From positions 36,145-100,144 of IMG/VR virus record IMGVR_UViG_3300019935_000001: a stretch of DNA of 64,000 nucleotides. One strand, 5' to 3'. Positions 175-58,322 of the stretch are shown here, piece by piece (the stretch's first letter is position 1; every line of letters starts with the position of its first letter). The DNA comes from a virus (Duplodnaviria; Heunggongvirae; Uroviricota; Caudoviricetes). The notes below the pieces were generated by a model that saw only the letters and a program-made list of their open reading frames with translations, had not been told where the DNA came from and did not search any database. A program made the translations under genes and the position numbers.

Positions 175-1305
175 TCAGAATCGCGGCGTAACCCACCGAC
201 CGGTTTGGATTAGATTCAAGCAGACGTTGATTCCCTTCTGAACCGGCCACCACTCCATCGAACCAAACTTCAACGACCAGTCGATCTCCCTAAGCAAGGT
301 CTTCACCCGATCTGGAGCAATCCCCATTTTCTCAAGTCTGGTTTTCACCTGCAGACGAATGTGCGGAAACATCTTCCACGAATCGCGCGAATGCGCTCCT
401 GTTGTCGTATAACATATCTCCGTAGGAGATTTATTTACCTTAGTACTTTGTGTCCCAGATTTGCGACCCCCCTGGCTGTCACCTCTGACACCCCCGCTGT
501 GAGTATCTTTTGTCAGTTCGGGCTGACTTGTCAGAGCGTTTCTAAGCGCGTTCAAATGCCGAATTGCTGTATTGTCACTACTTCTCTGTTTGCGCTCGTT
601 CTGAGCTAAAGCAGAGCGTTCTGCGGGCACATTCTCGCCGGGTTTCGGCTGTAGATTTCGATCTGAACAACCTTCTTCACATGTGCTGTGCTGAAAATCA
701 TAGTCGCGGATAGTCGCGATATATTCTGGTTGTTCAATTTGATCTTTGTAGTAGTCGCGGATAGTCTCGCTAATATCGTCTGGTTGCTCGCATAGTCCCG
801 GATAGTCGCGGTATTCATTGATTTTATTGTTAGAGTCGCGAACAGTCGCGGGGCAATCTTTCTTTACCTTCCGAATCTCTTCAAACTCATGTGCCGTTAT
901 CTGCTTGCTGATCACCTCGCGGGGGGTCGCGGACTTTCGTATCTTTTCCATTTCCTTCATCGGTAGTCGCGGACCATAGATGTTAGGCAAACTCTCACCG
1001 TCTGTTCCATTTCTCGTGACCACCAAAAGATAACCACCTTCCCGAAGCTCTTTGATTAATCGCCAGATAGTTGACTCCGACTTGCCTGTCGCAACTTTAA
1101 GGTAAGTCGCGGAGGCTTCAGTCTTCATGCCTGGTTTAAGCGCTGCCAACCTGTAAAGATTCAGCCACAGGATTTTGGCGGCGTCTGACAAGCCTGATCT
1201 CAGAAGCACATGGTCAATTACAGATGTCGCAAGGATGCGATATTCGTATCGCTCGTTGAGATATTGAAGCTGCTTCTCTGAGCAGGGTTCACACGGTCTG
1301 GACAT
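175..1305 (-). CDS. putative replication initiator (winged-helix N-terminal domain; iterons embedded mid-gene, lambda O-like layout)
   Basis: 376 aa. N-terminal wHTH-like segment (LSDAAKILWLNLYRLA...SESTIWRLIKELREGGYLLV). Central linker with repeated (T/S)IRDY peptides encoded by DNA repeats. Sits next to parAB. Confidence 0.6.
   Translation of the reverse strand: MSRPCEPCSEKQLQYLNERYEYRILATSVIDHVLLRSGLSDAAKILWLNLYRLAALKPGMKTEASATYLKVATGKSESTIWRLIKELREGGYLLVVTRNGTDGESLPNIYGPRLPMKEMEKIRKSATPREVISKQITAHEFEEIRKVKKDCPATVRDSNNKINEYRDYPGLCEQPDDISETIRDYYKDQIEQPEYIATIRDYDFQHSTCEEGCSDRNLQPKPGENVPAERSALAQNERKQRSSDNTAIRHLNALRNALTSQPELTKDTHSGGVRGDSQGGRKSGTQSTKVNKSPTEICYTTTGAHSRDSWKMFPHIRLQVKTRLEKMGIAPDRVKTLLREIDWSLKFGSMEWWPVQKGINVCLNLIQTGRWVTPRF
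701..851. repeat. iteron array: four tandem pairs of a 10-bp TAGTCGCGGA-type repeat
   Basis: Pairs start at 701/711, 752/762, 793/803 and 832/842. Core GTCGCG(G/A). An AT-rich patch lies at 812-831. Extra copies at 924, 964, 1103, 2418, 2448, 2488 (reverse) and 3364. Confidence 0.7.
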
Positions 1306-1323
1306 TGCTGTTCCCCTTAAACG

Positions 1324-1348
1324 AAAAAAGGGTCGCGAAGCGCGACCC
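1324..1348 (-). terminator. GC hairpin GGGTCGCG/CGCGACCC plus T6 on the minus strand (intrinsic terminator and/or Rep operator)
   Basis: Minus strand reads AAAGGGTCGCGCTTCGCGACCCTTTTTTCG. The arms are an inverted pair of the iteron core. It lies 25 nt upstream of the rep start codon. Confidence 0.5.
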
Positions 1349-1408
1349 TTTGGTGGTTGAGTAGTGTTGAGGCATTAAAAAAGGCCGCATTAAGCGACCT
1401 TTTCTTGT

Positions 1409-1598
1409 TTTGTCGTACCGGTACGACAAATGCGATTTTGGGTTATCTGGCGGGGGCGTACTGTATCTCATGGCCTCTTCTTCAATTCTGTCGTACCGGT
1501 ACGACAAACCTGCTTTGCCATACCTTTCTGATTTTGTCGTACCGGTACGACAAACGGTTTGTCATACCCTTTTTCTGTTTTGTCGTACCGGTACGACA
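1409..1598. repeat. parS-like centromere: four copies of the perfect palindrome TGTCGTACCGGTACGACA
   Basis: Cores at 1411-1428, 1489-1506, 1535-1552 and 1581-1598. The last three sit in 46-bp tandem units with similar spacers. The array lies directly downstream of the parB stop. Confidence 0.7.
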
Positions 1599-1600
1599 AA

Positions 1601-2659
1601 TTACTTCACTTTGGCTTCTGCCAGCTCCAGTAAGACCTTCAGGCAGTCATCTACAGAGACATGCTCAAGCAGATCCTTGCGCAGAGAGATCGTAGGGGTG
1701 CCATTGCTGTCGTTGCGGACAGTGAAGCACTCCTGACCATTCACCTTCACAGTGTTGGTCTTTGAATTTGTCGTACCGGTACGACAATGCTCTGTCACCT
1801 TGGAAACGCTGATCTTCCCATCACGTATTTTATCTGCGATCTCAACCAGCTTTGGTATGTTCTGCTCATTGTCACTGCAAAGGCGAGAGAGCAGTTTAAC
1901 CATCTTCAGGCCAACACCTGACATTGGGCCAATAGCTTCTATCAGGCCCCCTGGTAACTTTGTGTATGCCAGATGTTCGCTAATAACCCGACGATCCCGC
2001 TCAAGAGCCACTGCCAGTGCAGACTGGCTTTTATAGACGCCATCGTTGAGCAGCTTGCTCCAGAACATGGCGTCAGCCCATGCTGATAAGCCATCACGCT
2101 TGTCATTCTCCAGCTGCTGGACACGAGCTGCCTCGGCATCAGTAAGTGTCCGGACATTGGCCGGTACTTTGATTCCAAGCTCCAGACAGGCTTTCCAGCG
2201 ACGACGGCCCGCGATCACTTCAAATGAACCCGGTTGGGACGTGTCGGGGCGCACGATGATCGGAACCTCAATGCCTTCGGCTATAGACTTAACGAACTCG
2301 TCCCAGTTGCCAAACTCAGACTCCGGGCGATTCGCATACTTCCAGGGTTTGATTTTTTCAGCAGGGATCAGCCGAACCAGAAATTTATCATCTGGCTTTT
2401 GTGTGGACTTATCGTAGGTAGTCGCGGGCCTCTTCTTTCCTGAACTGCCAGTCGCGGTAGATTTTTCAGCTGCCTTGTTTTTGGCAGCCCGCGACTCTTC
2501 TTTCTTTGGCGCAGGTGAATCCGTTTCCGCTGCAGGAATTTCCAGCGCAGACAGGTTCAGGCCACTAATATCTGCCTTCGGAGCTTGTCTGTCCCGGAAT
2601 TGTTCGGACTGTGCCAACATCGCACCCATTGCGCCTGTCAGCTTCTTGTCACCAGCCAT
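1601..2659 (-). CDS. parB: ParB partition protein
   Basis: 352 aa. ParB-box motif FEVIAGRRRWKACLELG. Immediately downstream of parA (3-nt gap). Palindrome array follows. Confidence 0.85.
   Translation of the reverse strand: MAGDKKLTGAMGAMLAQSEQFRDRQAPKADISGLNLSALEIPAAETDSPAPKKEESRAAKNKAAEKSTATGSSGKKRPATTYDKSTQKPDDKFLVRLIPAEKIKPWKYANRPESEFGNWDEFVKSIAEGIEVPIIVRPDTSQPGSFEVIAGRRRWKACLELGIKVPANVRTLTDAEAARVQQLENDKRDGLSAWADAMFWSKLLNDGVYKSQSALAVALERDRRVISEHLAYTKLPGGLIEAIGPMSGVGLKMVKLLSRLCSDNEQNIPKLVEIADKIRDGKISVSKVTEHCRTGTTNSKTNTVKVNGQECFTVRNDSNGTPTISLRKDLLEHVSVDDCLKVLLELAEAKVK
1769..1786. repeat. fifth copy of the TGTCGTACCGGTACGACA palindrome, inside the parB 3' coding region
   Basis: Exact 18-bp core within parB, encoding ...HCRTGTTNSK... 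Confidence 0.6.
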
Positions 2660-2662
2660 TTA

Positions 2663-3826
2663 TTAATCCATCCCCCACACTCGGCAATAATCTTCAAAGA
2701 TCTCGCCGTATACCAGGTTGAAGTTATCGATTGCCCGCTTATAGGACTCACGGCTCGACAGAGGCTTGTTAAGGTCATAGACGCTTGTCAGTTGCTCACA
2801 CGCCTTCTCGACCTCTGTGGTCTGCACAATGGCGTTACTGAGGACGTATTCGCCGTATAATTCCCTGATGTCAGACTCGACCTTCCGGGCCGTCTGAGTG
2901 CCGCTGTGTTTCGTGATCAAGATACGCACGTAGTCCATCTTCTTGTCTACTGCATCGAACAGAACAGACAGGGAGTTGGAGAACATCACGAACGAAGCCA
3001 GGTCGTAGGTGGCCGGAGGCACTGGGATAACCATGGCGTCCGCTGCGATCAGAGCATTCGTTGTAAGAGCGCCCATGTTCGGCGGGCAGTCGATCAGAAT
3101 CAGGTCGTATATAGGGCGGAGGGCATCCACGACGCGCTTCAGGCGAAGTAGAGGCTCACCCATCTTGCGGGAATTGTTAACGTCCCGGTTCGGGAGAGCC
3201 AGGTCAAGATCCTGAATGCCCAGGTTAGCCGGAATCAGATGGACATTCGGAACGTAAGTCTGACGGATCACATTCTGCAGTGCTGAGTAGTCCTCAAGAA
3301 GCACTGGGTGAATGGTATCTTCAATTGTCAGTTCCAGGTCCGGGATGAATGGCCCCAGCGAGAAGGTCGCGGATGCTTGAGGGTCGAGATCGATAACCAG
3401 AACCTTCATGCCTTTGTTCGAGGCCATATAGTGAGCCTCATTGACAACGCTCGTGGTTTTGCCAACGCCACCCTTGAAGTTACTTGATGCCTTTACGATG
3501 GCACCAGTACCAGAGGGTTTCTGAAAGCCTGTACCAAGCTGTTCGCGCAGTTCCTGGATACGATGAAGGGTGTAGATCTTGCGACCGTTTGTGCCTTTCG
3601 GCGTGTCCTTGTCGTGTTCTCGGAGCCAAGGTACAGAGCGACCAATCATGGCTGCGGCTTCGGCAACACCATATGTCCGTGGCTCTTTCAGGGTCTTTGG
3701 GGAAACTATCGAGGCACGTAGCTCTTCGAGTTTTGCGCTCCCTTTACGATTGAAGTTGGCAAAAGTCTCGCCCGCGTTTTCCATGGCAAGCCGTGACTTT
3801 ACTGTATCGAAGAGGTCTTCTGACAT
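2663..3826 (-). CDS. parA: ParA partition ATPase, type Ia (long N-terminal extension)
   Basis: 387 aa. Deviant Walker A KGGVGKTT. Size matches P1 ParA / F SopA. parB lies downstream. Confidence 0.9.
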   Translation of the reverse strand: MSEDLFDTVKSRLAMENAGETFANFNRKGSAKLEELRASIVSPKTLKEPRTYGVAEAAAMIGRSVPWLREHDKDTPKGTNGRKIYTLHRIQELREQLGTGFQKPSGTGAIVKASSNFKGGVGKTTSVVNEAHYMASNKGMKVLVIDLDPQASATFSLGPFIPDLELTIEDTIHPVLLEDYSALQNVIRQTYVPNVHLIPANLGIQDLDLALPNRDVNNSRKMGEPLLRLKRVVDALRPIYDLILIDCPPNMGALTTNALIAADAMVIPVPPATYDLASFVMFSNSLSVLFDAVDKKMDYVRILITKHSGTQTARKVESDIRELYGEYVLSNAIVQTTEVEKACEQLTSVYDLNKPLSSRESYKRAIDNFNLVYGEIFEDYCRVWGMD

Positions 3827-3852
3827 TTGATGGTATCTCTGTACTTTGTCCT

Positions 3853-3873
3853 ATATGGCAAATTTAAAGCCAT
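3853..3873. promoter_or_regulatory. candidate parA operator
   Basis: Inverted repeat TATGGC-N9-GCCATA 27 nt upstream of the parA ATG. ATGGCAAA / GGCAAAAG repeats at about 3855, 3879 and 3905. Confidence 0.35.
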
Positions 3874-3930
3874 AAGTAGGCAAAAGCAAGGTTTTCTCAA
3901 AAATATGGCAAAAGGGTTATTTTAGGGAAA

Positions 3931-3960
3931 ATAAAAGGTGGCATCGAAATGCCACTTTTT
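3931..3960 (-). terminator. hairpin GTGGCAT-CGAA-ATGCCAC flanked by A/T runs
   Basis: 7-bp stem at 3938-3955 with T-rich sequence on both strands. Positioned after the 4068..4502 minus-strand gene. Confidence 0.5.
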
Positions 3961-4067: not shown

Positions 4068-4502
4068 CTAGTCATTCGACTGGTAATACTCTCTTATCAA
4101 TTGGTCGATTTTGGCCTGCAACTCAGGGTCGTAACTGCGCTTCTTGGTACCAGATTGTCTAAGTGCATTTAGTACCGCCTGCGTTGAGCCAATTTCAAGG
4201 TCAGATTTGGGTAACAGGTTTACTGCATCGAGTGCTGAAGATACGCCGTCCAGGTATTCTCTAATACACAGGATGGCAAAATTTGCTGGGTCTATCTCGA
4301 TAGCTTTTGCCAGCCTGACTGCCTTGTCGATAGGGACTTTGTATTTACCCTGGCGAATCATTGCAATGTTGTTGCCAAGCTTGAAGCCTGCTGCTTCAGC
4401 TATTTCCTGATGTGGCGTCTCTGCAAAGTCATTGAAGACGGTCTTGTCTACAAGCTCAGCGACCGGACACTCAAGGTTTTCGTGCCGTGTTTTACGTCTC
4501 AT
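4068..4502 (-). CDS. putative HTH DNA-binding regulator (XRE-like)
   Basis: 144 aa. HTH-like segment HQEIAEAAGFKLGNNIAMIRQGKYKVP. Lies upstream of the par operon. Confidence 0.5.
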   Translation of the reverse strand: MRRKTRHENLECPVAELVDKTVFNDFAETPHQEIAEAAGFKLGNNIAMIRQGKYKVPIDKAVRLAKAIEIDPANFAILCIREYLDGVSSALDAVNLLPKSDLEIGSTQAVLNALRQSGTKKRSYDPELQAKIDQLIREYYQSND

Positions 4503-4899
4503 TTCTCTGTCTCTCTGTAAAGGCGCATGTGTCCCTTTCGACCAAACCGGATGCCGTCCGAGTTTCCCCTTCCGTTTTGATCACGCTAAGCAAAAGTTTA
4601 TAGAATCAGCTGTTATAAGTAAATCAGCACCTACTAACAATAACGCTTAATTGTTAACGCGGATAGTTTGTCAGTTCTGCCTTATTAAATAGGCATTACA
4701 TTGCCTCGTCAAATTCTATAGGAAATATTCTTAATTTTGACTGATCATTCTGCTTAATATTTACTGACACTTACGAAGCTAAGGAGGGCTTAACTAAGTT
4801 TATAAGTTTGCTCTTACAATCTAACTATTAAACTTGTACTATCCCGTTTCGCTGATTTTTGTCAGCAAAATCGTTTGAAGACTGAGTATTGGATGTATC

Positions 4900-5100
4900 A
4901 TGAATCAAAAACCACAAGCATTGACTGCGGAGCAGTTCGTAGAGTTCCTCGAAATGGCTGTGATCTCCCACTCTGAAAGGATGGGCGCGAACACCATCTA
5001 CACGGTGAGAATCCCGGAGGGTGATGGACACTATGATGCTTCGCTCATTAACTGCTGTGACGGCTCCGACTTCATGATTCGCCATACGTCTGTTTGCTGA
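4900..5100 (+). CDS. hypothetical protein
   Basis: 66-aa ORF in the same orientation as downstream genes. Weak RBS. An antisense ORF of similar size overlaps it. Confidence 0.3.
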   Translation: MNQKPQALTAEQFVEFLEMAVISHSERMGANTIYTVRIPEGDGHYDASLINCCDGSDFMIRHTSVC

Positions 5101-17070: not shown

Positions 17071-18372
17071 GGAGGGTGTTCACCGTTCTGTGTCACCGTT
17101 TTATTCACAGGTCGACATACTGGTCGATTCTGTCAGGGAAGTGGATGCTCAGCTGAGACAGCGTGAGGTTCCAGTTCTGCACTGGATGCGTCCACTTCTC
17201 TGAGGCCCTCAATATGCCCGCATAGAGCAGCTTCAGCAGGCTGTTTTCATTGGCGAAGCCACCCTTGGTTTTGGTCAGTTTCCGGAACTGACGGTGCACG
17301 GCCTCAACTGCATTGGTCGTGTAGATCGCACGCCTTACCTGTTCCGGGTACTTGAAGTACACCGACAGGTTCTCCCACTTGCTACGCCATGACTTGATGA
17401 CCAGCGGGTACTGTTTCCCCCACTTTGCCTCCAGCTCGTCCAGCGCCTGCTCTGCGGCGTTTCGCGTCGCCGCCTTGTAGACGCATTTCAGATCCACCAT
17501 AAATGCCTTCTGATTCTTGCTGGCGACGTACTTCATGGAGTTGCGGATCTGGTGAACAATACACAGCTGTACTTCTGTTTCCGGATAGATGCTTTCGATC
17601 GCTTCAGGAAAGCCTTTCAGACCATCCACAGAGGCAATAAGGATGTCTTTCAGACCTCGATTCTGCAGATCTGTCAGGACGCTGAGCCAGTAATGTGCAC
17701 CTTCATTTTCAGACAGATAGAGTCCCAGCAGCTCCTTCTTACCTTCGATGGTTAGCCCAAGAATGGTGTACACCGCTTTGGAGATGAAACGACCATTCTC
17801 TTTCACTTTGTAGTGAATGGCATCCAGCCAGACAAAAGGGTATACCGGCTCCAGATCACGCTCTTGCCAGGCTTTAAGCTCCGGCACCAGGCGATCAGTT
17901 ACGGCGTTAATCATGCCGTTGGAGACGCTCATACCGTACATTTCACAGATATGGTCACGGATGTTCTGGTAACTGCTGCCTAATGCAAACAGAGACAGTA
18001 TCTTGCCTTCCATTTCATCAGTCAGACGGGTCTGATATTTCCTGACAGTCTGGGGCTCAAATGAGCCATTGCGATCTCTCGGCGTCTCCAGCTCGAACTC
18101 GCCAGCAGCGGTTTTGACTGTTTTCTTTGAGGTGCCATTTTTCCGATTGGCGGCCGGATTTTCTGCAAGGTGCTCATCAATCTCTGCACCCAATGCGGCT
18201 TCAGTGATCTGTTTGATCAGTGGTGTCAGGAGGCCATCCTTGCCATTGAGGTTCTGTCCAGATTGCAGCGCTTTGGCAAACGCCTGAATATCGATTTCGT
18301 ACTTGTCAGACATGATGTGTCGCTCCCCGTTTCACTCAGTGTAGGAAACGACACAGAACTCTGAACACTACC
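17071..18372 (-). mobile_element. IS256-family insertion sequence (about 1.3 kb)
   Basis: Single Mutator-type transposase gene. Imperfect terminal inverted repeats: GGTGTTCACCGTTCTGTGTC (about 17075-17094) versus the reverse complement of GACACAGAACTCTGAACAC (18350-18368). No target-site duplication could be identified. Confidence 0.7.
17105..18313 (-). CDS. IS256-family (Mutator-type) transposase
   Basis: 402 aa. Typical family N-terminus (GKDGLLTPLIKQITEAALGAEIDEHL) and core (WLDAIHYKV, VDGLKGFPEAI, CIVHQIRNS). Confidence 0.9.
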   Translation of the reverse strand: MSDKYEIDIQAFAKALQSGQNLNGKDGLLTPLIKQITEAALGAEIDEHLAENPAANRKNGTSKKTVKTAAGEFELETPRDRNGSFEPQTVRKYQTRLTDEMEGKILSLFALGSSYQNIRDHICEMYGMSVSNGMINAVTDRLVPELKAWQERDLEPVYPFVWLDAIHYKVKENGRFISKAVYTILGLTIEGKKELLGLYLSENEGAHYWLSVLTDLQNRGLKDILIASVDGLKGFPEAIESIYPETEVQLCIVHQIRNSMKYVASKNQKAFMVDLKCVYKAATRNAAEQALDELEAKWGKQYPLVIKSWRSKWENLSVYFKYPEQVRRAIYTTNAVEAVHRQFRKLTKTKGGFANENSLLKLLYAGILRASEKWTHPVQNWNLTLSQLSIHFPDRIDQYVDL

Positions 18373-18394
18373 GCACCACTAAATTATGACCTTT

Positions 18395-18856
18395 TTATTG
18401 AGGAGAGCTGCTTGCGTCGAGCGTCTTTGTAGCGTAAGACAAAAACTTCTGCCCATTGCATTCAAAAAACACACCGTTTCCGATTGTTATTATATTAACC
18501 TTGCTGTTCCTTATTTCTGAAAACTTTGACCTTGCCTTAAATGAAAATAATCCTTGTGACTTTTTATACAATGTTGCTGCATAATGTGAAATCTCATATA
18601 TAGTTGATCTTATGCTTGCATCCATTATTTCATTATTAGATATAAGCGCATTGTTCGCCATACCTATTGTTCTTTTTTGTGATGTTTCAATAAGTATATC
18701 TAAATCAGTAGATTTGTTAGTTATTAATGATATTATCTCATGTAAGTCCAAACCTATTGAAACAGAATTTCCCTTTGTGTGTATTTTTCTTAATTCTGAA
18801 AAAAGTTCTGCAGCAGCAATAACTTTACTATCTAGCTCCATTATGGTGTAGTTCAT
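18395..18856 (-). CDS. hypothetical protein in an AT-rich segment
   Basis: 153 aa. The local sequence (about 18390-18960) is visibly much more AT-rich than the flanks. Abuts the IS. Confidence 0.5.
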   Translation of the reverse strand: MNYTIMELDSKVIAAAELFSELRKIHTKGNSVSIGLDLHEIISLITNKSTDLDILIETSQKRTIGMANNALISNNEIMDASIRSTIYEISHYAATLYKKSQGLFSFKARSKFSEIRNSKVNIITIGNGVFFECNGQKFLSYATKTLDASSSPQ

Positions 18857-19214
18857 TCATAACCCTTGTTAAATATAGTGATAATTTGCATTTGAAAGCT
18901 AAAGCTATATATTGAACGATCGATCTTGAAAATGCTAGGAAAATCTGAAATCACATAACAACTGGTACATCTGAAGTTGAGTAAAGGAGGGCCGCTGGCT
19001 GTAGGTTGATCCAGCCCACAGTCTAATTCTGTGAGAGTTCGGCTAAATTGCCTGTAGACCGTCTGACTTTGTACACTTAGCGATCTTTTGTTCTAGTTAG
19101 AACGTTCATTCGGTTGTCCTGAGCCCCTTTGTACTACCAATCTTTCTCGGGCGACTCCCCTGAAACGATCATTCACAATCTGCTTGTAAATCAATGACAG
19201 AGCAAGGATGAACA

Positions 19215-19745
19215 ATGATTGATACCAATGTCAGAGCAGTAAAGCCGAGTGAGTCCGGGTGGTCGCTATCTGTTGACCGGGATCTCTGTGGGCACTGCGG
19301 GAAACAAAGCACCTGTGAGTCACTGGGCTCCTTGAACAGCTGGCGAGAACAGCATGGGCAAACTATTCGCCTGAAAGAGTGCGGCGGGTACTCATATCCG
19401 ATTCTGTTTGTAGATCCGACAGGCACCGATGGCGAGTTCAACACGATCCGCCTGGGTGAAGCCTGGGCTGGCCGCCTGAGTCCGGGGGTAGAGGTCACGC
19501 TGATAGATAAGCCGGGTAATGTGCTGGGCACAGCGGTGGTAGAGCGGGTACATACGGGAGACAAGGAGGAGGTGATTCGAGAGCACGCCTACCAGAACCA
19601 CCTGTATGTAGAGTCAGGCATGGGGCAGGAGGAGGCCGGTGCTGACCTGCTGAGAAGACTGCCGAGCATTTATGGCAACCTGATTATGAAAAGCAACACG
19701 CGAGCCACAGTAATCTACCTCAAGAACAAGGATCTATTAAAGTAA
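19215..19745 (+). CDS. hypothetical protein
   Basis: 176-aa ORF with AAGGATGAACA upstream of the ATG. Contains CGHCG...C. Confidence 0.5.
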   Translation: MIDTNVRAVKPSESGWSLSVDRDLCGHCGKQSTCESLGSLNSWREQHGQTIRLKECGGYSYPILFVDPTGTDGEFNTIRLGEAWAGRLSPGVEVTLIDKPGNVLGTAVVERVHTGDKEEVIREHAYQNHLYVESGMGQEEAGADLLRRLPSIYGNLIMKSNTRATVIYLKNKDLLK

Positions 19746-19761
19746 GGGCTTACTTATCAAT

Positions 19762-19872
19762 ATGAGCCGCATTATGATTCTGGACTCACTCAAAAACATC
19801 GGCGAAACGGGGCTTGTAGCCTTACTCGGTGCTTTCGCTTTTGGTAGTGAAATCATCGGTATTCTTTTCTAA
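19762..19872 (+). CDS. possible 36-aa hydrophobic peptide
   Basis: MSRIMILDSLKNIGETGLVALLGAFAFGSEIIGILF. The ATG lies 5 nt after a CTTACTTAT motif variant. Below the ORF-track cutoff. Confidence 0.25.
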   Translation: MSRIMILDSLKNIGETGLVALLGAFAFGSEIIGILF

Positions 19873-19908
19873 TTACCATTCGATTCCCCAAGGAAAAGCG
19901 TTTATTTC

Positions 19909-19944
19909 GTAAGTCAGAGCTTATAAACTTATGCTCTGACTTAC
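19909..19944. promoter_or_regulatory. extended form of the dispersed palindrome (12-bp arms)
   Basis: GTAAGTCAGAGC-N12-GCTCTGACTTAC, 25 nt upstream of sbcD. Confidence 0.5.
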
Positions 19945-19968
19945 ACACGCACACAGAGGGGACAGAAA

Positions 19969-21045
19969 ATGACCAAACCGTTCGGGGTTGCATCCGATGT
20001 GCATCTCCATAACTGGACCGCTTTTGCTGAGTCCACAGCAGATGGAGTTAACTCCCGTCTGCGCATCATTCTTAACGAGCTGATCCGTGCCGCCCAACAG
20101 ACTCTCAAGTCTGGCGGTAAGCGCATGGTAATCACCGGCGACCTGTTTCACGTTCGCGGCTCTATCACTCCATCCGTACTGAACCCGACACTGGACACTT
20201 TTCGTCAGATCATAGACATGGGCATCGAAGAGGTCGATGTGCTGGCCGGTAATCATGACCTGGAGTCGAAAGACAGCAACGCACTGACTAACGCCTGTGA
20301 AGCGCTGAGCCAGCTGTCGGAAGTCATGGTTGTATCAGCAACAAAGATCGTTGATCGCAATCGGGCGGTGTATGTCCCGTGGTACGACAACAGTGACGAT
20401 CTGCTGGCAGAGATTAACCGTGCAATCGGCGAGCTGCCGGAGCCTGTTGGCGAGTACGACCTGTTCATTCATGCACCGGTGGACGATGTGCTGCCGAACA
20501 TGCCGGGTCACGGGATCAACCCTGATGACCTGAAGAACCTGGGCTTCCGCTATGTTTTCTCCGGCCACTATCACAACCACAAAGAAGTGCGCGATGGCGT
20601 GTTCTCTGTCGGTGCAACAACTCACCAGACGTGGGGTGATGTCGATTCAAAGGCGGGCTTCCTGCTCGTGAATGACAGAGGCGTTAGCTACTGGCCGTCC
20701 GAAGCACCTGCATTCGTAGATCTGAGCGCTGCAACCGTAACTGATGACGTCGAAGCGTGGGATCTGTGTTCTGGCAATTATGTCCGGGTGAAGCTCGATC
20801 AGGTTACTCAGTCCGAAGTGGCCGAGATCAAGAGCTGGCTGATCGACGACATCGGGGCGAAGAACTGCATTATCCAGGCAACTCCGAAGAACAAGGTTGT
20901 CAGTCGCACCAGGTCGTCGAAAGGCGGAACGCTGCGTGAAAGCGTTGGTGACTTTGTAGGCTCGAAAAATATGACAGTTGAAAAGAAAGATGTGCTGGCA
21001 GTGTGCGAAGACATTCTGACGGCGACAGCAGGGGTGACAGTATGA
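19969..21045 (+). CDS. sbcD: SbcD/Mre11-family nuclease
   Basis: 358 aa. Metallophosphoesterase motifs GDLFH, GNHD, GHYHNH. Confidence 0.8.
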   Translation: MTKPFGVASDVHLHNWTAFAESTADGVNSRLRIILNELIRAAQQTLKSGGKRMVITGDLFHVRGSITPSVLNPTLDTFRQIIDMGIEEVDVLAGNHDLESKDSNALTNACEALSQLSEVMVVSATKIVDRNRAVYVPWYDNSDDLLAEINRAIGELPEPVGEYDLFIHAPVDDVLPNMPGHGINPDDLKNLGFRYVFSGHYHNHKEVRDGVFSVGATTHQTWGDVDSKAGFLLVNDRGVSYWPSEAPAFVDLSAATVTDDVEAWDLCSGNYVRVKLDQVTQSEVAEIKSWLIDDIGAKNCIIQATPKNKVVSRTRSSKGGTLRESVGDFVGSKNMTVEKKDVLAVCEDILTATAGVTV

Positions 21046-21368
21046 TTCAGATTAATGGCGTGACGATTAGCGGTGATGTCTCCCGGATGGACATCATAGA
21101 GGGAAAGATCATCGTTGACGGCGCTCAGGTCAACGGTATCGAACCTCCGATTCAGATTACCGGCAATGTTTCAAATCTCAGATGCGACCAGAGCGTAGAG
21201 GTTAACGGCGATGTCGGTAACGTCAGTGCGGGCGGCTCTGTACGTTGCGGGAACGTTTCAGGCAGCGCTGGTGCTGGAGGGTCTGTACGTTGCGGAAACG
21301 TTACCGGTAACGTTAATGCAGGTGGCTCTGTCCGCGTTGGCAGTATTTCCGGGGGGATGAAGCTGTGA
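21042..21368 (+). CDS. beta-helix repeat protein (bactofilin-like repeats)
   Basis: 108 aa from the ATG at 21042 (ATGA overlap with sbcD). Repeats of GNVS..GGSVRCGNV. Its stop overlaps the sbcC GTG start. Confidence 0.5.
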   Translation: MIQINGVTISGDVSRMDIIEGKIIVDGAQVNGIEPPIQITGNVSNLRCDQSVEVNGDVGNVSAGGSVRCGNVSGSAGAGGSVRCGNVTGNVNAGGSVRVGSISGGMKL

Positions 21369-23290
21369 AGTTCAAGAGCCTGAAAATCGAAAATTTTCTG
21401 ACAGTCGGGGTTATCGAAGCGGGCCTAGCCAATAAGGGGTTGGTGCTTGTACAGGGGGAGAACCGTGATGACACCAGTCAGGACAGCAATGGGTCGGGCA
21501 AGTCTTCATTCGTGGATGCACTGTGTTGGTGTCTTTATGGATCGACAGCCCGAGGTGTTTCGGGTGATGCCGTAATCAACGACACGGCGGGCAAGAACTG
21601 CCGGGTTGTGGCCTCTATCGAATTTGATGGCGAAGAGTACAAGATCTCCCGCCACCGCAAATACACCAAGATGCGCAACCGCCTGATCGTTGAAGGCCCA
21701 TCCGGCGATCTGACACTGGGCACAGATAAGCTGACGCAGGAGGTCGTGAATAAACTGGTCGGTGCCACTGCAGATGTCTTCTGTGCGTCCGTATACGCGG
21801 GCCAGGAAAACGTCCCGGATCTGCCGGGCATGACAGATGTGAACCTGAAAGCAATCGTCGAAGAAGCAGCCGGTATTAACCAGCTCGATGCCGCTCATAA
21901 GCTGGCCCGCGATAAGAAGAACGCCATTCAGCGTGATCTGGAGAACGATAATCGTGATCTCCAGTACAACGAGCAGAAGCTGCAGGATCTGAACAGCAAT
22001 CTCGCCACTACAGAAGCCCGGCTCAAGCAGTGGAAGAGCAACCACGAAGTTCGGGTTGAAGAGGCAAAGCGAAACCTTTTTTCGGTGAAAGTCGAAAAGG
22101 AAAAGCTGACGAGCGACGCGGAGACAGCCCGGACGGTTGAGGAGATCACTGCTGACCTGAATGCGTTGTCTGCACAGCTGACTGATCACGGGACTGCAAC
22201 TAAGCAGCGACAGATGCTTACTCAGGAGGCGGTTGCTGTCGAGAAGAAGGCGGCCGTTCAGGGTGCAAAAGTCGCCACAGTCACTACAGAGGTGAAGCGC
22301 CTGAAGAACAAGCTCGACGCTGTGACCGGAAAGCTCGGAGAGCCATGCTCTGAGTGTGGCCGTGATCACGACGAGTCAACCCTGGGTGTCGCTCACCAAA
22401 CTGTCAAATCTGAGCTGAAAAGCAAAGCGCTTGAAATGAAGAGCGAGAAAGCAGAGTTGGCGAGACTCACAGAAGCGTATCAGAGCGCTGTACAGCGCGT
22501 TTCAGAGTTCACCGATGCGATGACCGATGTTAGCGAGATAATCGCCGCACAGAGCGAACTGAGCGAAGAGAGAGCCGCTGCCAGCGCCCGTAACGCGAAG
22601 GTAGAGGCAGCGAGCGAAAAACTGGGCCAGTGCGCTCGCACCTACAAGGCCGTTCTGCACGAAAACAACCCTTATGCGGACTCCTATGCGGACATTGCCG
22701 AGCAAATCAGAAGTCAGTCTGCCCTGATCGATGATGCCCGGACTGCGATCAAGGCCAAGGAATACAAGCTCGAAGTCGCAGAAGAGGCTGTGCATGTGTT
22801 CGGCCCGGCGGGTGTACGTGCTCATATCCTGGACACAGTGACTCCGTTCCTGAACGACAAGACCTCTGAGTACCTGTCTGTGCTTTCCGACGGCAACATT
22901 CAGGCCGTATGGAACACGCTCGGGACAACTGCGAAGGGTGAGGTTCGGGAGAAGTTCAATATTGAAGTCACCAGCGAAACCGGTGGCGACTCCTTCAAGA
23001 AACTGTCAGGTGGTGAGAAGCGAAAAGTTCGCCTGGCAACGTCTATGGCCCTGCAAGATCTGGTAGCGAGCCGAGCAACAAAGCCTATCGACCTATTCAT
23101 TGCAGACGAGGTTGATGCAGCTATCGACGAATCCGGGTTGGAACGACTGATGACAATCCTGAAAAGCAAGGCCGAACAGGTTGGTACTGTTCTGGTGATT
23201 TCTCACTCGGACCTGAAGAGCTGGATCAGCAACAGTGTGACGGTTGTGAAAGAGAAGGGCATGGCGCGTCTGGAAGGGTATGCACTGTGA
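21365..23290 (+). CDS. sbcC: SbcC/Rad50-family ATPase
   Basis: 641 aa. Walker A NGSGKSS, long coiled coil with a CSEC zinc hook, signature LSGGEKRKV, Walker B LFIADEVD. Confidence 0.85.
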   Translation: MKFKSLKIENFLTVGVIEAGLANKGLVLVQGENRDDTSQDSNGSGKSSFVDALCWCLYGSTARGVSGDAVINDTAGKNCRVVASIEFDGEEYKISRHRKYTKMRNRLIVEGPSGDLTLGTDKLTQEVVNKLVGATADVFCASVYAGQENVPDLPGMTDVNLKAIVEEAAGINQLDAAHKLARDKKNAIQRDLENDNRDLQYNEQKLQDLNSNLATTEARLKQWKSNHEVRVEEAKRNLFSVKVEKEKLTSDAETARTVEEITADLNALSAQLTDHGTATKQRQMLTQEAVAVEKKAAVQGAKVATVTTEVKRLKNKLDAVTGKLGEPCSECGRDHDESTLGVAHQTVKSELKSKALEMKSEKAELARLTEAYQSAVQRVSEFTDAMTDVSEIIAAQSELSEERAAASARNAKVEAASEKLGQCARTYKAVLHENNPYADSYADIAEQIRSQSALIDDARTAIKAKEYKLEVAEEAVHVFGPAGVRAHILDTVTPFLNDKTSEYLSVLSDGNIQAVWNTLGTTAKGEVREKFNIEVTSETGGDSFKKLSGGEKRKVRLATSMALQDLVASRATKPIDLFIADEVDAAIDESGLERLMTILKSKAEQVGTVLVISHSDLKSWISNSVTVVKEKGMARLEGYAL

Positions 23291-35837: not shown

Positions 35838-36448
35838 TGCGCGAACTGATTGTAAATGTTACCGATATTGAAACTACTGGCCTGAAGCAGGAAGACGGCC
35901 ATCGCATCATTGAGGTTGCGATGGCCCTGCTGAAGATCCAGTTCAACGACGACAACACCTTTGCTGGCTATAAGCGAGTAGGCAAAACCTGGTGTCAGCG
36001 AATCAATCCGTGCCGGAACATCGATGCAGCTGCACAGGCTGTTCACGGTATCAGCTTATCGAGTCTGCGCGGCGAGCCGGTCTGGGAAGATGTAGCCGGG
36101 CGTGTTGCAAAGATCCTGGCGGCGAGTGATGTCGCGGTGGCTCACAATGTTGAGTTTGATATGCCGTTCATTGCTCTGGAGCTGGTACGCATTGGCCAAG
36201 AGATCCCGGACTTCGAAACCTTCTGTACTTTGGAAGGCGGGCGATCTGCTACGGGCCTGGGCACAGTACCTAGCCTGCAGAAGCTATGTTGGGCCATGGG
36301 TGTGCCGTACAACCCGGATGAAGCCCACGCTGCTGATTACGATGTGGACTGCACAGTTGATGCGCTGGTCAAGGGTTTGAATCTGGGATACTTCAGCTTC
36401 GCTGATGTCCTGAACGAAAAGTATGGTGAAGCCAGTGCTGAAGTTTGA
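35837..36448 (+). CDS. DnaQ-like DEDDh 3'-5' exonuclease
   Basis: 203 aa. Exo I VTDIETTGL, Exo II VAHNVEFDMPF, Exo III HAADYDVDC. Confidence 0.8.
   Translation: MRELIVNVTDIETTGLKQEDGHRIIEVAMALLKIQFNDDNTFAGYKRVGKTWCQRINPCRNIDAAAQAVHGISLSSLRGEPVWEDVAGRVAKILAASDVAVAHNVEFDMPFIALELVRIGQEIPDFETFCTLEGGRSATGLGTVPSLQKLCWAMGVPYNPDEAHAADYDVDCTVDALVKGLNLGYFSFADVLNEKYGEASAEV

Positions 36449-58282: not shown

Positions 58283-58322
<40 letters not shown>

Follow-up and report, generated by a model that had tools for sequence, protein, structure and literature searches.

A phased array of 10-bp direct repeats inside a putative initiator gene is a candidate replication origin of a phage-like plasmid

An origin of replication that lies inside the gene for its own initiator is textbook knowledge for phage lambda and is well documented for the RepA_N and repC families. 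Here we describe a locus that extends this known design. It lies in a 64,000-nucleotide stretch of DNA (the window; positions 36,145 to 100,144 of the IMG/VR virus record IMGVR_UViG_3300019935_000001, class Caudoviricetes), in which the gene for a putative replication initiator, rep, holds 11 copies of a 10-base-pair (bp) word. We read these copies as probable binding sites for Rep and as a candidate origin.

Plasmids of the Rep_3 type (pPS10, F, R6K, pSC101, and P1 with its RepA) have an intergenic origin with iterons of 17-22 bp, DnaA boxes, and an A+T-rich element, and their initiators contain two winged-helix domains. In lambda, each iteron spans about 19 bp and has internal dyad symmetry, and an A+T-rich tract of about 40 bp comes after the iterons. 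Lambda and the Stx phages carry their proven origin iterons in the middle of gene O, and a change from four to six iterons corresponds to a difference of 13 residues (PMC7466680). In pSK41, a RepA_N plasmid, four Rep boxes lie centrally in rep and are bound by the winged-helix N-terminal domain; the linker is encoded by the origin and dispensable, and the conserved C-terminal domain recruits parts of the replisome, namely DnaG (PMC5703833). RepA_N boxes are semi-palindromic around an A-tract (PMC7145576). The Rep of the Staphylococcus plasmid pPR9 joins a pfam13730 N-domain to a pSK41 C-domain, and a segment of ~500 bp with the N-domain and the origin was exchanged as a module, with autonomous replication reported for the region (PMC5703833). 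Finally, the repABC plasmids of alphaproteobacteria have oriV inside repC, with no DnaA boxes, no iterons, and a large A+T-rich region, and a regulatory RNA structure occupies the spacer between parB and the initiator gene, just before the initiator's Shine-Dalgarno sequence (PMC3155836).

On the coding strand of rep, a stretch of 410 bp contains 11 copies of the word (T/C)CCG[C/A]GACTA, all in one orientation. Direct reading and a repeat finder agree on four tandem pairs at 701-852, and three single copies follow at 924-1113 (Table 1). Each tandem pair is ~20 bp long, the size of a usual iteron, and successive pairs start 51, 41, and 40 bp apart. The four pairs correspond to nucleotides 456-607 of rep and residues 152-202 of the protein, at the start of a predicted disordered linker (residues 128-309), and encode the peptides PATVRDS, EYRDYPGL, SETIRDY, and IATIRDY. 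Pairs 1 and 2 arose as an in-frame 51-bp duplication in which the spacer was copied too (719-735 and 773-789). A first-pass annotation of the same DNA had reported four tandem 10-mer pairs in mid-gene, 40-51 bp apart, that encode part of a protein linker, with an A+T-rich patch between pairs 3 and 4, and our reading and the domain map described below bear this out; the repeated peptide (T/S)IRDY that it had named is also present, but the encoded peptides are more varied and pair 3 stands in a different register. The array is no assembly artefact, because 4.8 kb that include it are identical base for base in three independent assemblies (Logan, ENA, and JGI).

We then asked at which level the repeats are maintained. 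The word occurs in all three frames of the gene, where it encodes PRL, (S)AT, and RDY. As the unit is 10 bp long, the two units of a pair fall into different frames: one supplies GCG ACT (Ala-Thr) and the other CGC GAC TAT (Arg-Asp-Tyr), which together give ATIRDY. Neither the 41-bp nor the 40-bp spacing keeps the reading frame, but both are near four helical turns. In a synonymous-codon permutation of rep, CGCGACT was found eight times against 1.1 expected, and none of 5,000 permutations reached eight (P<2e-4). The sites are phased on one helix face, the best-fitting period being 10.1 bp (R=0.94 across all 11 sites; P ~0.009 against random placement for the seven independent window sites), and R is 0.93-0.99 at this period in seven loci. 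Based on the three frames, the out-of-frame spacing, the codon permutation, the helical phasing, and the conservation of codons, the sequence evidence indicates that the repeats are kept by selection on the DNA and not on the peptide, and we hold with high confidence that the motif is a functional element at the DNA level.

The opposite reading, that a functional linker peptide (A/E)TIRDY is what is selected and the likeness of the DNA is incidental, draws on the near invariance of R200, D201, and Y202 in the protein alignment and on the in-frame origin of pairs 1 and 2. It is strongly disfavoured: besides the codon permutation and the out-of-frame spacings, one DNA word in three frames gives unrelated peptides, parB has copies of the word in either orientation, and in one relative (L009, below) it has changed in concert across frames. 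The first-pass annotation had the DNA force the peptide; the direction of that claim is well supported, whereas its unit and scope were too narrow, as 11 phased sites reach into the N-domain and a further cluster lies in parB. Nor do the homologues keep the peptide without the DNA repeat, since the DNA repeat is conserved.

The motif is concentrated at this locus. Its density is 11.5 per kb in rep, whereas the remainder of a 19-kb locus has 1.6 per kb. The 7-mer GTCGCGG, with 16 copies in the window against 8.1 expected from shuffles, is about twofold over expectation and so not rare overall, but it is extremely clustered, with 11 of the 16 copies at 703-3372. The earlier count of about 10 copies in this region and two elsewhere missed three outside copies (23532, 38844, and 52028, all minus), which are at about chance level. 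Likewise, 11 of the 14 window copies of AGTCGCG lie within 702-2496, which is 2.8% of the window and where ~0.2 would be expected by length. No second iteron-like array was found elsewhere in the 64-kb window.

The second cluster, in parB, lies in the 5' part of that gene and encodes a low-complexity N-terminal segment of ParB. Over nine homologous loci, parB contains 15 sites, where codon permutation predicts 2.1; they all lie at nucleotides 130-320, in either orientation. The control gene parA has one site against 2.6 expected. The parB of locus L013 (2965-3052) has four direct sites at 30/10/40-bp spacing, where the motif encodes PATTRDS; L009 and L014 are without the cluster. Short repeats within a gene also make up the pac site of phage P1, and we therefore considered that the sites are read by another protein, such as a phage repressor or regulator, a packaging (pac) recognition protein, or a host factor. 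We regard this as quite improbable: the motif stays within the rep-parB segment and is at chance level elsewhere, it travels and varies with this rep family across divergent backbones, and there is no terminase context.

Close relatives of Rep are few: we found only 11 (35-45% identity) among 5.8 billion proteins. Our comparison of nine loci comprises the window and eight distinct homologous loci (L004 and L008-L014), all of which keep the order parA-parB-parS-rep. Scans with the family alignment gave no match in viral and reference-genome contigs and one locus in metagenomes, a duplicate of L013. In the relatives, a tandem pair equivalent to pair 1 is kept at matching codons (for example GTCGCGACTATCCGCGACTATG in L008 and GCCGCGACTACCCGCGACTATG in L004), with a single clear unit only in L011, and further sites occupy PRL, PAT, and ATP codons of the N-domain. 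The conserved relative positions are 326, 336, 366, 417, and 427, and hence the spacings are 10, 30, 51, and 10. Most relatives have a single (A/E)T(I/T)RDY peptide. In the permutation test, enrichment is significant for six of the eight relatives. The window element has the most expanded array of the family, with four pairs against one. At the PRL site, which in the window uses the rare codons CGA and CTA, CCG followed by an xGA arginine codon is kept in 9/9 loci, and the surrounding motif YGPRLP varies as IYSPRLP in L009 and YGPRIP in L010. L009 has CCGAGACTA in each unit of the pair and at the PRL site as well, a change that replaces Ala with Glu in one frame and is silent in the other two. 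Such a concerted change is suggestive of sites that co-evolve with the protein that binds them, in a set of few and related sequences.

We next considered what kind of protein Rep is. Pfam gives HTH_36 (PF13730) at 25.3 bits, against a gathering cutoff of 25, and otherwise only HTH_11; PF04492, PF06970, PF01051, and PF03428 do not match the window protein. Among PHROG families, it matches PHROG 186, "DnaD-like helicase loader" (E=2e-9), and "replication initiation protein" (1.7e-7), with weak matches to "replication initiation O-like" (3e-4 and 0.013). An exhaustive HMMER search recovered 118 related clusters, in which the N- and C-terminal stretches typically match and the middle is variable. 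HTH_36 is present in 56 of 62 sampled relatives (best 2.7e-9) and Phage_rep_O (PF04492) in one (6e-6), and PF06970, PF01051, and PF03428 are absent from the 25 families listed for these 62. An AlphaFold2 model, made from a shallow alignment of 12 sequences, predicts a winged-helix N-domain at residues ~25-127 (predicted local distance difference test, pLDDT, 76-91), a disordered linker at 128-309 (pLDDT below 50), and a helical C-domain at 310-376 (pLDDT 83-93). Foldseek against the PDB returned MarR-type winged helices, all with E above 0.01, and a profile search against PDB sequences gave generic winged-helix regulators only. By tblastn, Rep had no phage match and hit only two distant homologues, which lie directly after parA-parB on Pseudomonas megaplasmids of 245 kb and 586 kb, a position that fits a plasmid initiator. 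Because of HTH_36, the DnaD-like and O-like PHROG matches, the parA-parB-rep synteny, and the domain build, the assignment of rep as a putative initiator gene, already made in the first pass, is plausible.

Compared with lambda O, the layout is alike, as had been pointed out earlier: the sites lie in the initiator gene between a DNA-binding N-domain and a C-domain that in lambda recruits the helicase loader, and their number varies among relatives and changes protein length, here with four pairs against one (PMC7466680). The sites themselves are unlike those of lambda, being tandemly paired direct 10-mers that lack dyad symmetry, and the A+T patch measures ~20 bp; Rep has no PF04492 match, and no P-like helicase-loader gene comes after rep, where instead we found convergent open reading frames (ORFs) of 162 and 199 residues without a Pfam match. 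With the RepA_N initiators (pSK41, pAD1, pLS32; PF06970), Rep would share central boxes in rep, a winged-helix N-domain, a linker, and a conserved C-domain. The RepA_N N-domain 4pql is the best low-deviation Foldseek match among initiators, and a weak one (rank 10, E=0.022, root-mean-square deviation 4.7 Å over 99 columns) that does not rise above the equally scoring MarR-type regulators. Rep differs from RepA_N in having no PF06970, GC-rich direct 10-mers, a Gram-negative-like host range, and a phage-like backbone. By domain and description it resembles pPR9 Rep in its PF13730 N-domain, but the C-domain is unrelated. The order parA-like, parB-like, initiator, seen in the nine loci and on the two Pseudomonas megaplasmids, and hairpins in the same place recall repABC in layout only, as there is no RepC (PF03428) match and iteron-like repeats are present here. 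Finally, phased direct repeats for the element's own initiator (predicted here) and a possible second, copy-control cluster are features of Rep_3 iteron plasmids, from which the locus departs in having no PF01051, one predicted winged helix, intragenic sites, and no DnaA box within 17 kb. Four features depart from all of these models: GC-rich 10-mers in tandem pairs, sites in the codons of a folded domain, a word read in three frames, and the cluster in parB.

Based on these comparisons, we think it likely that the array is a set of iterons bound by Rep. We put the probability that the rep array is also the plasmid-mode origin at roughly 55%, given that it is the only iteron-like array in 64 kb, that it lies in an initiator-type gene, that it is phased, and that its placement in the linker is that of proven systems. 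In such an origin, the winged-helix N-domains of Rep would bind the sites side by side and form an O-some-like nucleoprotein complex, which would strain the A+T-richer spacers at 721-751 and 812-833. The conserved C-domain would then recruit a helicase and a primase, either the element's own DnaB-like and DnaG-like proteins, encoded 4-7 kb away, or those of the host, and initiation would proceed without DnaA. The DNA sites would give rise, as by-products, to the linker peptide (A/E)T(I/T)RDY and to part of YGPRLP. The parB cluster may allow looping or handcuffing that controls copy number, or may link replication with partition.

Several observations weigh against the array as origin. The parB cluster means that the rep cluster is not the sole candidate site of action. 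Every close relative is metagenomic, L012 and L014 have one to four weak sites, without significance in the permutation test, and no internal array was found in the distant homologues of the Pseudomonas megaplasmids. The A+T patch between pairs 3 and 4 is only ~20 bp long and does not rank with the most A+T-rich 40-bp windows of the locus; the single-pair relatives, in which pairs 3 and 4 are missing, do not have it. Where residues are identical, codon identity rises only moderately, to 0.59 at motif codons against 0.46 elsewhere. GC and AT skew over rep and 8 kb on its far side tracks transcription and gene orientation, with no switch at rep. DnaA boxes (TTWTNCACA) are absent within 17 kb of rep and number three in the window, which is chance level; their absence is compatible with independence from DnaA and removes a usual landmark.

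Some of the same facts raise the question of whether the array binds Rep as a control element, acting as an autoregulatory roadblock, by titration, or by handcuffing with the parB cluster, while the origin lies elsewhere: in the A+T-rich non-coding DNA at 3830-3960 or 4500-4900, or outside the window, which spans only 64 of ~103 kb. Two separate clusters, in rep and in parB, would suit such a role, like those of P1 (oriR and incA) and F, and so would the finding that the strongest A+T-rich windows of every locus are upstream of parA, in the promoter region, and not in rep. However, no iteron copies lie near those A+T-rich regions, and no relative lacks the rep cluster, although two lack the parB cluster. 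Known initiators of the same domain build moreover carry the origin within the gene (PMC5703833, PMC7466680). Together these points make a pure control element, the main rival, unlikely, and we retain the rep array as the candidate origin. Of the A+T-rich stretches, the one at 4503-4870 (~370 bp, non-coding) runs from a 144-residue ORF to the next plus-strand genes, where gene orientation switches; it contains no repeats and no DnaA boxes, and might serve as an alternative origin or as a promoter hub.

We also considered a bolder form of the origin reading, in which the site array reaches into the codons of the folded domain and partly dictates YGPRLP and (S/T)ATPRE, and Rep, attached to the rep and parB clusters alike, loops the 1.5 kb of parS and parB and so couples initiation or copy control to partition. 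We consider this rather doubtful. If true, initiator and sites would be interwritten more deeply than in lambda or RepA_N, beyond a disposable linker.

Table 1. Positions of the repeats, genes, and neighbouring features in the window
Feature	Position	Strand	Description
Iteron pair 1	701-720	minus	TAGTCGCGGA TAGTCGCGAT on plus strand; ATCGCGACTA TCCGCGACTA on coding strand; encodes I-A-T-I-R-D-Y
Iteron pair 2	752-771	minus	TAGTCGCGGA TAGTCTCGCT; encodes S-E-T-I-R-D-Y; 51 bp (17 codons) from pair 1
Iteron pair 3	793-812	minus	TAGTCCCGGA TAGTCGCGGT; shifted register, Y-R-D-Y-P-G-L; 41 bp from pair 2, out of frame
Iteron pair 4	833-852	minus	GAGTCGCGAA CAGTCGCGGG; encodes P-A-T-V-R-D-S; 40 bp from pair 3
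Single site	924-933	minus	GGGTCGCGGA; encodes S-A-T of the conserved (S/T)ATPREV
Single site	964-973	minus	TAGTCGCGGA; CCG CGA CTA, P-R-L of the near-invariant YGPRLP
Single site	1104-1113	minus	AAGTCGCGGA; encodes S-A-T in EASATYL; not conserved in relatives
A+T-rich patch	812-833		tattcattgattttattgttag; 82% A+T, ~20 bp, between pairs 3 and 4; weak candidate for an unwinding element
parB motif cluster	2419-2497		TAGTCGCGG 2419-2427 (+), CAGTCGCGG 2449-2457 (+), GAGTCGCGG 2489-2497 (-)
rep	175-1305	minus	Putative replication initiator, 376 residues; ORF list, Pfam, PHROG, AlphaFold2 domain map
parB	1601-2659	minus	352 residues, ParB_N
parA	2663-3826	minus	387 residues, AAA_31/CbiA
Probable parS palindromes (four)	1409-1600		Perfect 22-bp TTTGTCGTACCGGTACGACAAA, 46-78 bp spacing, between parB and rep
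Fifth 22-bp palindrome	1766-1787		TTTGTCGTACCGGTACGACAAA, 3' end of parB
First terminator-like hairpin	1383-1399	minus	GGUCGC UUAAU GCGGCC and U-run, after the parS array
Second terminator-like hairpin	1327-1351	minus	GGGTCGCG CUU CGCGACCC and U-run, ~10 nucleotides upstream of the rep Shine-Dalgarno sequence

The first 4 kb of the window hold rep, parB, and parA, all on the minus strand, so that rep comes after parA, parB, and an array of palindromes (Table 1). This array is a probable centromere of the sopC/parS kind. Homologous loci have two to four palindromes in the equivalent place, and their inner sequence changes from locus to locus (for example TTGTCCGTCCGGACGGACAA and TTGTCGGAACGTTCCGACAA), which suggests that parS sites co-vary with their ParB. 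Just upstream of parA, A+T-rich DNA at 3840-3915 contains three (T)ATGGCAAA(A)/TAGGCAAAAG-like words, with one more at 3753-3765 inside parA; these are probably an operator for ParA/ParB autoregulation. In two of the relatives, a second, smaller parA/parB pair (248 and 331 residues) lies just downstream of rep (L004 7174-8935 and L008 6201-7962), and in some (L004, L008) a Peptidase_S24 (LexA/CI-like) gene precedes parA. On a Pseudomonas psychrotolerans plasmid (NZ_CP102429.1; L015 2034-3845), the 2.2-kb gap between parB and a distant rep homologue is taken up by a 72-bp unit repeated ~25 times in tandem, a very large, centromere-like array.

Two terminator-like hairpins occupy the spacer between parS and rep in 9/9 loci (fold z-score -3.9). 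In most loci their stems hold a U.G wobble, which fits RNA of the sense strand only. Rfam has no relevant family for them. A scan for sigma-70-type promoters stayed at chance level and gave no convincing rep promoter, and rep may therefore be expressed by read-through from parAB, or be under attenuation or antisense control as in repABC or pSK41. The hairpin upstream of rep, with GTCGCG in both arms, was also considered as an operator for Rep. We rejected this as the main interpretation, since the hairpin stays GGTCGCG where the iterons are CGAGACT, only one arm matches the iteron in most loci, and the wobble points to sense-strand RNA.

The element that carries this locus is most likely of the phage-plasmid type and ~100 kb in size, based on its phage-like DNA-metabolism genes, a phage-related CobT, and a 102.7-kb contig, the longest that carries a rep of this type. 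Its genes include those for CobT, an AAA_5 ATPase, a DNA polymerase III alpha subunit, a DnaB-like helicase, a DnaG-like primase, a ligase, ribonucleotide reductase, thymidylate synthase, SbcCD, and a UvsX-like recombinase. CobT is ~40% identical to the CobT of 112-117-kb Pseudomonas and Rhizobium phages, with weaker matches in Klebsiella, Escherichia, and Salmonella phages. No near-identical DNA was found among PLSDB plasmids or GenBank phages. Within the DNA-metabolism module, a gene for a 402-residue transposase (PHROG 2331, E=5e-150; 17105-18313, minus) lies in a low-GC stretch of 2 kb (GC 0.447 at 18001-20000) and is likely part of an insertion sequence. The gap between the sbcD-like (19969-21045) and sbcC-like (21365-23290) genes is occupied by a tandem repeat (21215-21331, a 45-bp unit 2.6 times) that holds the words GGTAACGTT / CGGAAACGTTAC. 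A simple repeat, AACTAACCAACT 3.3 times (AACT ten times), lies at 58283-58322.

Taken together, rep and its array form a probable replication module, with an initiator, its sites, and a likely origin, for an uncharacterised family of ~100-kb phage-like plasmids known only from metagenomes, and the fragment at ~600-1150 together with rep is a candidate mini-replicon. The array would also be a clean natural case of dual coding, in which a 10-bp protein-binding word is written in three frames of the gene of its probable binder, and this dual coding would explain otherwise puzzling conserved residues of the linker.

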